NCBI RefSeq assembly: GCF_044324785.1
Contig: NZ_CP172127.1
DNA from: Escherichia coli
GTDB lineage: Bacteria; Pseudomonadota; Gammaproteobacteria; Enterobacterales; Enterobacteriaceae
DNA length: 64,000 nucleotides
Direction: 5' to 3' (one strand)
Shown: positions 30,184 through 35,154 of the stretch, piece by piece
How the letters are laid out: each line of letters starts with the position of its first letter
How positions within the stretch are numbered: position 1 is the first letter of the stretch
Program-made: the position numbers and the translations under genes
The notes under the pieces: generated by a model
The model's input: only the letters and a program-made list of their open reading frames with translations
What the model was told of the DNA's origin: nothing
Database searches by the model: none

Positions 30184-32244
30184 ATGAGCAAGGCAGGCAA
30201 AATAACCGCTGCGATTTCAGGGGCTTTCTTGTTGTTGATTGTCGTGGCGATCATTTTGATTGCAACTTTTGACTGGAATCGACTCAAACCGACCATCAAC
30301 CAGAAAGTCTCTGCGGAGTTGAATCGTCCGTTCGCTATCCGTGGCGATCTGGGCGTGGTGTGGGAGCGACAAAAACAAGAAACTGGCTGGCGCAGCTGGG
30401 TGCCGTGGCCCCATATACACGCGGAAGACATCATTCTCGGCAACCCACCAGATATTCCCGAAGTCACAATGGTGCATTTGCCACGCGTAGAGGCAACGCT
30501 GGCACCGTTGGCGCTGCTGACCAAAACGGTCTGGCTACCGTGGATCGAACTGGAGAAGCCCGACGCACGCCTGATTCGCCTCTCTGAAAAGAACAATAAC
30601 TGGACCTTTAATCTCGCCAACGATGACAACAAAGACACGAATGCAAAGCCGTCGGCATGGTCGTTTCGGCTGGATAATATTCTGTTCGATCAAGGGCGGA
30701 TCGCCATTGATGACAAAGTAAGCAAAGCGGATCTGGAAATTTTTGTTGATCCGTTAGGCAAGCCGCTGCCGTTCAGCGAAGTTACTGGATCGAAAGGTAA
30801 AGCGGATAAAGAAAAGGTGGGCGATTACGTTTTTGGCCTGAAGGCGCAGGGACGTTATAACGGTGAACCGCTCACGGGTACGGGAAAAATAGGCGGTATG
30901 CTGGCGCTGCGTGGCGAAGGGACGCCGTTTCCGGTACAGGCTGATTTTCGCTCTGGTAACACCCGTGTTGCTTTTGATGGCGTTGTGAATGACCCAATGA
31001 AGATGGGTGGTGTCGATTTACGGCTTAAATTTTCTGGCGATTCGCTGGGTGATCTCTATGAACTGACGGGCGTTCTGCTGCCCGATACCCCGCCGTTTGA
31101 AACGGATGGTCGGCTGGTAGCGAAAATCGACACTGAAAAATCGTCGGTCTTTGATTATCGCGGTTTTAATGGGCGCATTGGCGATAGCGATATCCACGGT
31201 TCTCTGGTCTACACCACCGGCAAGCCACGACCAAAACTGGAAGGTGATGTTGAGTCGCGGCAATTGCGGCTGGCAGATTTAGGGCCGTTAATTGGCGTTG
31301 ATTCCGGGAAAGGAGCTGAAAAGTCGAAACGGTCTGAACAGAAGAAGGGTGAAAAAAGCGTTCAGCCTGCGGGCAAAGTGCTGCCTTATGACCGCTTCGA
31401 AACCGATAAATGGGACGTCATGGATGCCGATGTTCGCTTCAAAGGGCGGCGCATTGAGCATGGTAGTAGCCTGCCGATTAGCGATCTTTCAACTCATATC
31501 ATCCTCAAAAATGCTGACCTGCGCCTGCAACCGCTGAAATTTGGCATGGCGGGCGGCAGCATTGCGGCGAATATTCATCTGGAAGGTGATAAAAAACCGA
31601 TGCAAGGGCGGGCAGATATTCAGGCTCGTCGGCTGAAACTGAAAGAACTGATGCCCGATGTAGAACTGATGCAGAAGACGCTGGGGGAAATGAACGGTGA
31701 CGCGGAACTACGCGGTAGCGGTAACTCGGTGGCGGCGCTTTTAGGCAACAGTAACGGCAACCTGAAACTGTTGATGAATGACGGGCTGGTGAGCCGCAAC
31801 CTGATGGAGATTGTCGGGCTGAATGTCGGCAACTACATTGTCGGTGCGATATTTGGTGACGATGAGGTGCGGGTGAACTGCGCGGCGGCGAATCTGGATA
31901 TTGCCAACGGTGTGGCGCGTCCGCAGATTTTTGCTTTTGATACTGAGAATGCGTTGATCAATGTTACCGGCACGGCAAGTTTTGCTTCGGAGCAACTGGA
32001 TTTGACTATCGATCCAGAAAGTAAAGGGATTCGGATTATCACGCTGCGTTCGCCGCTGTATGTGCGTGGGACATTTAAAAATCCGCAGGCTGGGGTGAAA
32101 GCCGGGCCGTTGATTGCCCGTGGTGCTGTTGCGGCGGCACTGGCAACGCTGGTAACACCGGCGGCGGCGTTACTGGCGCTGATCTCTCCTTCCGAAGGGG
32201 AGGCTAATCAGTGTCGGACGATTTTGTTGCAGATGAAGAAGTGA
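30184..32244 (+). CDS. yhjG: AsmA-family protein YhjG
   Basis: 686 aa from MSKAGKITAAISGAF with N-terminal TM anchor. Confidence 0.88.
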   Translation: MSKAGKITAAISGAFLLLIVVAIILIATFDWNRLKPTINQKVSAELNRPFAIRGDLGVVWERQKQETGWRSWVPWPHIHAEDIILGNPPDIPEVTMVHLPRVEATLAPLALLTKTVWLPWIELEKPDARLIRLSEKNNNWTFNLANDDNKDTNAKPSAWSFRLDNILFDQGRIAIDDKVSKADLEIFVDPLGKPLPFSEVTGSKGKADKEKVGDYVFGLKAQGRYNGEPLTGTGKIGGMLALRGEGTPFPVQADFRSGNTRVAFDGVVNDPMKMGGVDLRLKFSGDSLGDLYELTGVLLPDTPPFETDGRLVAKIDTEKSSVFDYRGFNGRIGDSDIHGSLVYTTGKPRPKLEGDVESRQLRLADLGPLIGVDSGKGAEKSKRSEQKKGEKSVQPAGKVLPYDRFETDKWDVMDADVRFKGRRIEHGSSLPISDLSTHIILKNADLRLQPLKFGMAGGSIAANIHLEGDKKPMQGRADIQARRLKLKELMPDVELMQKTLGEMNGDAELRGSGNSVAALLGNSNGNLKLLMNDGLVSRNLMEIVGLNVGNYIVGAIFGDDEVRVNCAAANLDIANGVARPQIFAFDTENALINVTGTASFASEQLDLTIDPESKGIRIITLRSPLYVRGTFKNPQAGVKAGPLIARGAVAAALATLVTPAAALLALISPSEGEANQCRTILLQMKK

Positions 32245-32250
32245 TGATAA

Positions 32251-32275
32251 TTGCCGGATGTCTGACATCCGGCAA
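32251..32275 (+). terminator. Hairpin after yhjG
   Basis: ttgccggatg tctga catccggcaa perfect inverted repeat 7 nt after the yhjG stop. Confidence 0.5.
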
Positions 32276-32387
32276 TTAAACAGATTTAGAGTGTTGGCAA
32301 AGTGTGCTTTGTTCATGCCGGATGTGACGTGAACGCTTTATCCGTCCAACAAATCCTTGCGAATTCAATATATTGTATGGAAATTCA

Positions 32388-32413
32388 GGCCTGATAAGCG
32401 TAGCGCATCAGGC
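32388..32413. repeat. REP (repetitive extragenic palindrome) element
   Basis: ggcctgataagcgtagcgcatcaggc matches the classic REP palindromic unit; a second partial gccggatg-type unit lies near 32315-32350. Confidence 0.65.
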
Positions 32414-32425
32414 TTTTCACTCTTA

Positions 32426-33748
32426 TTACAACGATTGATGTCGCGTCTCATGGGTCAGCAGTAGGGCGATTAAGGTCAAGCCAGCCATCGCCGCCAGATA
32501 TAACCCCACCGCACCTAACCCGTAGTTAGTCTGCAACCAGGCTGCGATATACGGCGCAACGGAAGCCCCGAGAATCGACGCTACGTTGTAAGAGAATGAT
32601 GCTCCGGTGTAACGCACTTCTGTCGGGAACAGCTCTGGTAACAGCGCGCCCATCGGCCCGAAGGTCAGCCCCATCAGACTTAACCCCAGCAGCAGGAAGG
32701 CAAAAACCAGAATCGGGTTGCCAGAACCGAGCAGCGGGTTAAAGGCGAACAGCGCGAACAGGATGATCAGCGTGGTGATAATTACCATGCTTTTACGGCG
32801 ACCAAAGGCATCAGCCAGTAATCCGGCGACTGGCACCATCACGCCAAAACCAATAACTGCCATCATCAGCATCCACAACACTTCGTTACGCGGCAGGCCA
32901 AGCCCAACTGGCGCAGCGGCGGTACTAAAGGTCATGGAGTAGACCGTCATGATGTAAAACAGCGTATAGGTTGCCAGCATGATGAAGGTACCGAGCACCG
33001 TGACGCGAACATGTTTGGTCAGCAGCGTACCCAGCGGGATCTTCACCTGTTTTTTCGCTTTAGCGACTTTCTCAAACACCGGCGACTCATGCAGCGACAC
33101 GCGAACATACAGGCCGATAATGACCAGCACCGCTGAGAAGATAAATGGCACACGCCAGCCCCAGCTCATAAACTGCTCGTCGGTCAGTAGCCAGGAAAGC
33201 AGTAAGAAAGTGCCGTTGGCAAAGAAGAAGCCAATCGGTGCGCCCAGCTGCGGGAAGGAGCCGTACAATGCACGTTTGCGCGGTGGGGCGTTTTCAGTCG
33301 CCAGCAGCGCCGCGCCGCCCCATTCACCGCCTAAGCCCAGACCCTGACCAAATCGAGCCAGTGCCAGCAGCAGCGGGGCGAAAATACCAATCGTGGCATA
33401 GCCCGGCAGCAGACCAATCACCACGGTCGAAATCCCCATCGTTAGCAACGAGGCGACCAGCGTCGCTTTACGCCCAACGCGATCGCCAAAATGACCAAAG
33501 ACGGCAGAGCCAATAGGGCGCGCGACGAAGGCGATGGCGAAGGTGGCAAGCGACTGTAGCGTTGCTGCCGTAGGATCGCCCTGCGGGAAGAAGATATGCG
33601 GAAACACAATAACGGCCGCAGTGGCGTAAATATAAAAGTCGAAGAACTCAATGGCCGTGCCAATGAGAGAGGCGACAAGGACTTTATTACGCGAGTTGAT
33701 CGGCGTGTATTCTTGCTCGTGGTCGAGTGTTGTGGCTGTTGCTTGCAT
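32426..33748 (-). CDS. yhjE: MFS transporter YhjE
   Basis: 440 aa, 12-TM profile. Confidence 0.9.
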   Translation of the reverse strand: MQATATTLDHEQEYTPINSRNKVLVASLIGTAIEFFDFYIYATAAVIVFPHIFFPQGDPTAATLQSLATFAIAFVARPIGSAVFGHFGDRVGRKATLVASLLTMGISTVVIGLLPGYATIGIFAPLLLALARFGQGLGLGGEWGGAALLATENAPPRKRALYGSFPQLGAPIGFFFANGTFLLLSWLLTDEQFMSWGWRVPFIFSAVLVIIGLYVRVSLHESPVFEKVAKAKKQVKIPLGTLLTKHVRVTVLGTFIMLATYTLFYIMTVYSMTFSTAAAPVGLGLPRNEVLWMLMMAVIGFGVMVPVAGLLADAFGRRKSMVIITTLIILFALFAFNPLLGSGNPILVFAFLLLGLSLMGLTFGPMGALLPELFPTEVRYTGASFSYNVASILGASVAPYIAAWLQTNYGLGAVGLYLAAMAGLTLIALLLTHETRHQSL

Positions 33749-34064
33749 AATCTTTTCTTATTTTTTGGCTAACGAATAGCCATATTACGCACAGCAAAAG
33801 TGATATTTCAATGTGTAACAAATCGCGGAAATGGTCAAAGATCAGGCAAAAAGGGGATAATGTTTAGGCCAGTGATTTTTCTTCTATGAAATGCTTCACA
33901 TAATTTTATAAATGGTGGATAAAACTGGTTTCAGGTTAAATAAAAGTTACCAACTGGATTTATATGCTGGGGTTATGAGTTGGAATGAAATTGTTTGCTC
34001 CTGAAGAGGATGTAGTTTCAGGTGGTTATGTGCATGTCGTTGCCTGGTCTCTGGCTGGCTTGTA

Positions 34065-34112
34065 CCCCCTCACCCTAATCCTCTCCCCGAAGGGGCGAGG
34101 GGATCGACCGTG
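34065..34112. repeat. GC-rich imperfect palindromic element downstream of yhjD
   Basis: ccccctcaccctaatcctctccccgaaggggcgaggggatcgaccgtgcg has ctcccc/gggg hairpin potential in an otherwise AT-rich spacer; family not assigned. Confidence 0.35.
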
Positions 34113-34140
34113 CGTTTATCAGGCATTATAACTCATTGAA

Positions 34141-35154
34141 TTACCGCTGCGTTTTCCCCGGCATTCGCGGGTCGTCTTTATATTCGGCGGTGGCAATCCA
34201 CGCCGCGCAAAACAGCGTCAAACGGGCGAAGAAGTAGAAAAATGCCATCAGCCCCAGCACGGAACCAAATGCTGCGCCAGAGGGGGATTTCATCAGCGAT
34301 GGCAGGGTGTAGGTCATCACGATTTTAATCACTTCAAAACCAATCGCAGCCAGAAATGTTCCGCGAATCAGGGCTTTTTTGCGCGGACGGTGGCGCGGCA
34401 AGCGCCAGAAGATCCAGAAGAAAAGCAGATAGTTGGCGAAGATGGAAATCGCCAGGCCAATCAACCGCCACGTCGGTTTCAGCCACTCAATGCTGTTCAG
34501 GTGCAGGGCGCTAATAATCATTTGCTGCGCCGAACCGGCAACCGAGGTGATCGAAAGCGTCACAATCAGTGCAATCAACAAACCAATCAGCGAAATAAAA
34601 TCACGCAGATATTTTACCCAGAACTTCTCCTGATCTTGCGGCGAGCGTTCCCAGACATCGCGTGACTGGGCGCGAATCGCTTCACGCAGGTTACCCATCC
34701 AGTTGATGCCGGAATAAAGCGCCACCGCCAGGCCGACAAGCCCTACGGTAGTACGCTGCTGAACGGCGGTGTTGATGGTGTTTTTCAACGTGGCGGCTAG
34801 CGTCGGATCGCTGATGTTTTGCAGAATTTTGTCGAAGATATCCTGTAGCAACATCGGATGGGAGGCCAGCACAAAGCCCCCTGCGGCAAACGACACCATC
34901 AAAATCGGGATCATCGACAAAAATGAGAAATAGGTGATAGCCGCACCAAACTGGTTACCCAGCCGATCGTTAAAGCGCTCTGTTGCGCGAATCAGGTGCG
35001 CAATAACCGGTTGGCGTTGGACTTTCTCGGCAGTAGTGGTGACGGTTTCCAGCGCCTGGCTAACTTTGCCGCCTTTCTCGCTATTATCCAACTGCTTAAT
35101 CGGCTCGTGCTCCAGATCCTGGGTGGGACGTTTGATCTCGTTTTCCTGCGTCAT
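34141..35154 (-). CDS. yhjD: Inner membrane protein YhjD (YihY/virulence-factor BrkB family)
   Basis: 337 aa multi-TM. Confidence 0.9.
   Translation of the reverse strand: MTQENEIKRPTQDLEHEPIKQLDNSEKGGKVSQALETVTTTAEKVQRQPVIAHLIRATERFNDRLGNQFGAAITYFSFLSMIPILMVSFAAGGFVLASHPMLLQDIFDKILQNISDPTLAATLKNTINTAVQQRTTVGLVGLAVALYSGINWMGNLREAIRAQSRDVWERSPQDQEKFWVKYLRDFISLIGLLIALIVTLSITSVAGSAQQMIISALHLNSIEWLKPTWRLIGLAISIFANYLLFFWIFWRLPRHRPRKKALIRGTFLAAIGFEVIKIVMTYTLPSLMKSPSGAAFGSVLGLMAFFYFFARLTLFCAAWIATAEYKDDPRMPGKTQR

Follow-up and report, generated by a model that had tools for sequence, protein, structure and literature searches.

What is the GC-rich palindrome that interrupts the AT-rich spacer between yhjE and yhjD in this Escherichia coli strain, and does it serve the genes on either side of it? 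In the window, as we call the whole 64-kb stretch of DNA that was analyzed, the spacer measures 392 nt from the yhjE start (33748) to the yhjD stop (34141). RefSeq names the corresponding products in near-identical E. coli matches "MFS transporter" (yhjE) and "inner membrane protein YhjD". Measured in 40-nt windows, the GC content is 57–65% over 34020–34120 vs 25–40% in most of 33740–34000. The original prediction described a compact GC-rich palindrome in a mostly AT-rich spacer of about 390 bp, placed it just 3′ of the yhjD stop codon, and read it as a member of a small intergenic repeat family to which it could not give a name. Its description of the site is accurate. The quoted 38-mer, ccccctcaccctaatcctctccccgaaggggcgagggg, maps to 34065–34102, the core begins 38 nt 3′ of the yhjD stop, and the family-conserved unit around this core begins 25 nt 3′ of the stop and lies inside the spacer.

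Judged by its sequence, the element belongs to BoxC (also PIT or TMECO), a known family and not a new one, of which it is a subtype A copy. This E. coli repeat was first called BoxC, was rediscovered as a potential intrastrand triplex (PIT), and was then named TMECO (Holder et al. 2015, NAR, PMC4666352). An independent survey described BoxC as a 56-bp family with 32 copies (PMC2267715). The TMECO consensus reads CCCTCNCCC-N3-6-GGGNGAGGG-N3-GGGNGAGGG, and the second loop distinguishes type A (TTA) from type B (CCG) (PMC4666352). The second loop of the window copy is TTA (34076–34078, minus strand), which makes it type A. Its core agrees in 34 of 36 bases with the commonest type A copy of K-12, CCCTCGCCCCTTTGGGGAGAGGGTTAGGGTGAGGGG ("A mm"; Table 1 of PMC4666352); it departs from that copy at one loop base and at 34079 in block 2, where G is changed to A. 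The copy between trmJ and iscR aligns with 91.5% identity over 59 nt (blastn, E = 7e-14). Type A copies also share flanking sequence, about 14 nt on the 5′ side of the core (…GCACGGNCGGTC) and as much as about 13 nt on its 3′ side (GAACAGGCCAGC), as judged from a separate alignment of 5 copies and from those copies of type A that were among 15 motif matches gathered at 12 loci. Since these flanks are conserved, we place the family unit in the window at about 34054–34115. BLAST matches to other BoxC copies cover 34054–34117 and 34066–34124.

The window copy thus shares with the known A mm copies the three 9-nt blocks, the length of the first loop, the TTA of the second, the block 1 G that gives rise to the "mm" mismatch, and the conserved flanks. 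Like other BoxC copies it is intergenic, close to the 3′ end of a gene and strain-variable. It differs from them in the extra G-to-A change, by which it misses the strict TMECO pattern by one base. The orthologous copy of strain 7/2 reads GGGAGAGGG in block 2 and fits the strict pattern. The window copy is thus a point-mutated TMECO, a category ("TMECO mutated") described by Holder et al. (PMC4666352), and two of the nine triplets would be mismatched in its intrastrand triplex. It also differs in its location, as yhjD–yhjE is not among the 23 BoxC copies of K-12, which has REP at this place, and in standing alone, without the inverted type B partner found at five K-12 loci. In the searchable part of the supplement of Holder et al. 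(PMC4666352), queries for yhjD, yhjE and the exact variant gave no match, a result that is uninformative as to absence. The coordinates of the element and its neighbors are collected in Table 1.

Table 1. Features of the yhjE–yhjD region, in window coordinates
Feature	Position	Strand	Remarks
yhjE CDS (MFS transporter)	32426..33748	-	downstream of the yhjD–yhjE spacer; ORF list and RefSeq annotation beneath BLAST matches
yhjE upstream region (context)	33749..33968	-	bounds the variable slot at the yhjE side; conservation profile, window and 74 loci
Strain-variable cassette, 106 nt	34035..34140	.	non-homologous to the REP/BIME cassette between the same junctions in K-12, O157 and other sampled REP-allele strains
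Family-conserved BoxC unit, 62 nt	34054..34115	-	core plus 5′ flank ACGCACGGTCGATC and 3′ flank GGTACAAGCCAGC (minus-strand reading)
BoxC/TMECO type A core	34065..34102	-	reads C-CCCTCGCCC-CTTCG-GGGAGAGGA-TTA-GGGTGAGGG-GG
Block 3, GGGTGAGGG	34067..34075	-	third-strand block in the published triplex model; outer 10-bp hairpin with block 1
Block 2, GGGAGAGGA	34079..34087	-	A at 34079 in place of canonical G; breaks the strict TMECO pattern
Block 1, CCCTCGCCC	34093..34101	-	pyrimidine block; pairs with block 2 or block 3
yhjD CDS	34141..35154	-	ORF list and RefSeq annotation beneath BLAST matches

By its sequence the element belongs with BoxC and not with REP/BIME, and the positive BoxC match leaves no need to assign it to RSA or ERIC/IRU. 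The cassette at 34035–34140 lacks the 35–40-nt imperfect palindrome with GCC(G/T)GATG… / …CTTATC(C/A)GGCCTAC arms by which REP is recognized, and a search of the whole window for CTTATCCGGCCTAC with as many as 2 mismatches found none. The element does contain a loose GCCTGATAAACGC resemblance to REP, and the BoxC copy at trmJ has the same resemblance. REP/BIME repeats (PU) are similar to the element in their setting: most E. coli strains, as well as Salmonella, Citrobacter and other Escherichia species, have them in this same physical slot, and they too are imperfect palindromes rich in GC, located in 3′ untranslated regions, multi-copy and polymorphic among strains. However, they have no sequence homology to the BoxC cassette and are far commoner, with at least 40 places per genome vs a median of 15 for BoxC. 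REP is mobilized by a known family of transposases, RAYT. We know of no transposase that mobilizes BoxC, nor, to our knowledge, has any function or mobility mechanism been established for this family.

The ctcccc/gggg pairing potential noted in the original prediction is present and comes in two forms. The main inverted repeat (34066–34075 and 34093–34102) spans 10 nt with one mismatch (90% complementary), and it competes with an alternative inner pairing, CCCC-GAA-GGGG. The G-to-A change at 34079 costs the hairpin between blocks 1 and 2 1.4 kcal/mol. In yhjD-sense RNA the outer stem comprises 10 bp with one G-U pair and is enclosed by a UGCCUG/CAGGCA helix. The minus-strand RNA of 34000–34145 (146 nt after the yhjD stop) folds with −47.3 kcal/mol, corresponding to z = −2.47 vs shuffles. 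The isolated unit folded as DNA is no better than its shuffles (ViennaRNA, hairpins only). A scan for terminators and promoters found no site at the element, and no T-run follows the stem on either strand, in agreement with the earlier judgment that this is not a plain terminator. An Rfam scan of 33000–35000 with E up to 10 gave Antizyme_FSE as the sole match to the element (18.6 bits vs a gathering score of 40; E = 1.1). The hit is to an unrelated family, and we rejected it as a chance match to a C-rich/G-rich hairpin.

Within the window the element is single-copy: the 36-mer, searched with 3 mismatches, and GGGTGAGGG each match once, and shuffles of the window predict zero chance matches to the 36-mer. 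Genome-wide, a blastn search with 34040–34125 returned 72,545 places with related sequence, spread over 5,418 of the 5,426 complete E. coli genomes, with a median of 15 per genome. Almost all of these places are chromosomal; 37 are on plasmids. Phage records are nearly free of the family, with matches in three; in a plasmid collection, matches occur in 340 of 72,556 records, several of which are chromosome-sized. BoxC copies are also present in the loci fetched from Klebsiella, Enterobacter, Pluralibacter and Pseudocitrobacter. This multiplicity, together with the near-identity to the K-12 type A copy and the conserved flanks, bears out the reading of the palindrome as a member of a small intergenic repeat family.

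Strains differ in whether they carry the element at this site, a check that the original prediction had proposed. The BoxC allele with its flanks occurs in 599–602 of the 5,426 genomes (11%), and the copy is missing from about 89%, of which those sampled carry REP. K-12, O157:H7 and GPEC1354 have the same sequence as the window up to …GGTTATGTGC (34034) and again from the yhjD stop codon. Between these junctions they contain an unrelated cassette with one or two REP palindromes. The K-12 cassette occurs at at least 40 places per genome and finds a match of at least 99% identity in 3,217 records; we take it to be REP. This identification rests on copy number and on the REP consensus, since the RefSeq annotation of K-12 lists no repeat features in the adjoining yhjE–yhjG region that was fetched.

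The last sense codon of yhjD (34144–34146) abuts the cassette and changes along with it. It is CGG (Arg) in the BoxC allele, encodes Arg also in E. albertii, and is an Arg codon (CGN) in the other genera shown; REP alleles have Pro (K-12), His (E. whittamii) or Asn (strain SCPM-O-B-8794) at this position. Since this codon varies with the cassette, the repeat cassettes abut and rewrite the end of the gene. Identity within the cassette is 94–99%, and a 20-nt indel is also found at the locus. In strain 2017.18.02CC, the yhjD–yhjE spacer contains an ISApl1 (IS30-family) insertion (locus L004, 3473–4447). Strain variability is a property of TMECO loci, and judged from this locus alone, the alternating BoxC and REP cassettes, the indel and ISApl1 give yhjD–yhjE the same property. 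Strain polymorphism at BoxC loci is already described in general terms.

Comparison with K-12 also revealed a possible 4-nt direct repeat (ATGC) that brackets an 85-nt insert (34035–34042 and 34123–34131), the window reading TATAATGC-insert-ATGCACATAACC vs TATAATGCGCACATAACC in K-12. As a target-site duplication this repeat is unproven: the insert ends that it implies do not coincide with the unit at 34054–34115, and ATGC may occur by chance. The filled and empty pairs at recA–recX and trmJ–iscR contain no matching duplication.

To follow the slot beyond E. coli, we fetched 80 yhjD loci, one genome per species, and placed both genes in 74 of them (5 Escherichia representatives and 69 from other genera). 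The spacer is 242–277 nt long in 52 of the 74 loci. The ten short-spacer loci that were inspected all have a simple hairpin at the slot, with the consensus ATCGGGCTGA…TCAGCCCGAT. Longer spacers occur in the other 22 loci, and 19 of these contain REP-like motifs, among them Salmonella, several Citrobacter, E. albertii, E. whittamii and two other Escherichia lineages. BoxC was found by blastn-short in none of the 74 orthologous spacers; its presence at yhjD is therefore a state derived within E. coli. The junctions are identical in all seven BoxC alleles sampled, which argues for one origin of the allele; over 131 nt these alleles differ by 1–8 substitutions. Strains 7/2 and K_EC180 have the canonical base at 34079. 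Since strain 7/2 keeps the canonical block 2 while the window lineage and K_EC180 differ by point changes, and not by the same ones, the copy appears to be decaying.

We consider it likely that the BoxC copy is a passenger repeat in the 3′ slot of yhjD, one that arrived a single time, was redistributed by recombination and is now decaying. It is not a canonical terminator. In the lineage of the source strain, a non-coding unit of about 62 nt with three 9-nt G/C blocks, capable of forming a hairpin in two alternative registers, occupies the slot right after the yhjD stop. By this account it arrived once in an E. coli lineage, was then transferred between backgrounds through homologous recombination, and has been decaying by point mutation, of which G to A at 34079 would be an instance. 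The only likely local effect would be to give the yhjD transcript a stable, GC-rich hairpin in its 3′ untranslated part, as REP would also do. That the repeat is a passenger is the most likely status, and we infer it from the absence of evidence for function. Two observations point the other way. The minus-strand RNA of 34000–34145 folds better than shuffles, and in the lineages examined the slot always holds some GC-rich hairpin, be it a simple hairpin, REP or BoxC. This constancy could mean that structure at the 3′ end of yhjD is under selection.

If so, the element may function as RNA: its hairpin at the 3′ end of the yhjD message would shield the transcript from 3′ exonucleases or attenuate read-through into yhjE, and would be interchangeable with REP or a simple hairpin. 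We regard this as possible but unlikely. It would account for the presence of a GC-rich hairpin after the stop codon in every lineage examined (simple in the ten inspected of 52, REP-like in 19, or BoxC), and it agrees with the full 10-bp outer stem on the yhjD sense strand and with the stability of the 146-nt region reported above. The BoxC copies at trmJ, recA, glnH and adk are also in sense orientation, 8–33 nt past the stop codon, and REP is established to stabilize upstream mRNA. However, the hairpin is not followed by a T-run, the copy tolerates point mutations in its blocks, and PIT elements had neither terminator nor promoter activity in published assays (cited in PMC4666352). Moreover, the orientation of K-12 copies relative to the co-directional upstream gene is mixed, being sense at adk and ycjD and antisense at argF, pstA and yihS (Table 1 and Table S2 of PMC4666352).

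A role at the level of DNA is harder still to sustain, and we think it improbable. According to the hypothesis of Holder et al., a transient intrastrand triplex or other non-B structure formed in replication or repair would destabilize the locus and thereby cause the variability among strains. Isolated G-rich single strands of TMECO indeed form stable intrastrand triplexes in vitro, as studied with oligonucleotides, and TMECO loci were more variable than control loci among 56 strains (PMC4666352). The yhjD locus, too, is highly variable, in its BoxC and REP cassettes, the 20-nt indel, the last yhjD codon, the ISApl1 insertion of one strain, and the 94–99% identity within the cassette. On the other hand, triplex formation gained no support from in vivo DMS footprinting, and in its double-stranded form the repeat is an ordinary duplex (PMC4666352). 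The window copy also has two mismatched triplets out of nine. REP alleles vary just as much in REP number and last codon, and the slot is already variable in genera without BoxC there. It may therefore be the slot itself, and not BoxC, that is the source of the variability. Both the RNA-level and the DNA-level explanation are less supported than the reading of the copy as a passenger repeat.

The spacer on the other side of yhjE (yhjG–yhjE, window 32245–32425) is also dimorphic, in the opposite sense. It contains three REP-like palindromes in the window, in K-12 and in 3,596 of 5,426 genomes, and an inverted BoxC pair (type A plus type B) in 1,600 genomes (e.g., locus L004, 1644–1876). Some genomes have a 172-nt variant in which the partner is partly deleted. 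All four combinations of REP and BoxC across the two spacers that flank yhjE exist. REP is found at both in K-12; the window and FDAARGOS_497 combine BoxC at yhjD–yhjE with REP at yhjE–yhjG; strains 2017.18.02CC and E69 have REP at yhjD–yhjE and BoxC at yhjE–yhjG; strains 7/2 and K_EC180 have BoxC at both. The existence of all four indicates recombination within about 1.7 kb, or recurrent events, around yhjE.

Alternation of REP and BoxC in a post-stop slot has a third case at trmJ–iscR, where K-12 has a multi-REP BIME right after the trmJ stop and ACN001 has a BoxC unit between the same junctions (L006, 367–666, vs L095, 1633–2083). A BoxC unit with a degenerate partner also forms an insertion of about 174 nt in the recA–recX spacer of strain 1943, located before the recX-proximal terminator hairpin (L007, 450–691). 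This spacer is 68 nt long in K-12 (L096, 1641–1708).

REP and BoxC thus alternate between identical or near-identical junctions at yhjD–yhjE, yhjE–yhjG and trmJ–iscR. There is a slim chance that the two families compete for one insertion niche directly after the stop codon. If this were true, BoxC could be mobile and non-autonomous, with terminator or REP hairpins as its targets, or it could be exchanged with such hairpins by a shared mechanism. Alternatively, BoxC is a static relic. Among the papers searched, none treats BIME together with box C.

The idea that the element is the unique intrinsic terminator of yhjD, conserved for that role, has practically no chance of being correct. The GC-rich inverted repeat 38 nt past the yhjD stop does resemble a Rho-independent terminator in its GC-rich stem just past a stop codon, a place where the inspected short-spacer loci of other genera have a simple hairpin, but the BoxC stem lacks a T-run, the terminator scan is blank at the element, and PIT elements showed no terminator activity in published tests (PMC4666352). 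What refutes the idea is that the repeat is multi-copy in almost every E. coli genome and missing at this locus from most strains and from all 74 orthologous loci. A motif unique in the genome and conserved only as a yhjD terminator, which the original prediction had named as the finding that would speak against it, is therefore not what we observe. Equally negligible is a small protein encoded by the listed 48-codon ORF at 33985–34131 on the plus strand (translation, MKLFAPEEDVVSGGYVHVVAWSLAGLYPLTLILSPKGRGDRPCVYQAL), as this frame lies mostly inside the strain-variable cassette, runs across a repeat whose copies lie in either orientation elsewhere in the genome, and has no promoter-like site upstream near 33985 on the plus strand in our scan.

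An appropriate annotation for the element is BoxC repeat (PIT/TMECO type A), which matters little alone. It marks the yhjD–yhjE spacer as a strain-variable site with alternating BoxC and REP cassettes. Together with the last codon of yhjD to which it is linked (Arg vs Pro), the cassette labels a recombining haplotype that about 11% of E. coli genomes carry. Since sequenced strains cover all four REP/BoxC combinations, the spacers on either side of yhjE provide a compact natural test bed for the functional interchangeability of BoxC and REP at the 3′ ends of genes.

Two further observations concern the source of the window and the surroundings of the slot. None of the complete-genome records matches 34020–34150 exactly. 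Over the yhjG–yhjE region (window 32150–32520) one of 5,424 matching records reaches 99% identity, and the first-listed record has 97.6%. The complete-genome collection appears to lack the source genome or to represent it only weakly. On the yhjE side, the roughly 220 nt 5′ of yhjE (33749–33968) are strongly conserved across the 74 orthologous Enterobacteriaceae loci. This region has no Rfam family match. It contains a promoter-like TTGAAA-18-TAATAT at 33811–33782 on the minus strand and a CRP-like TGTGAAGCATTTCATA motif near 33888–33903.
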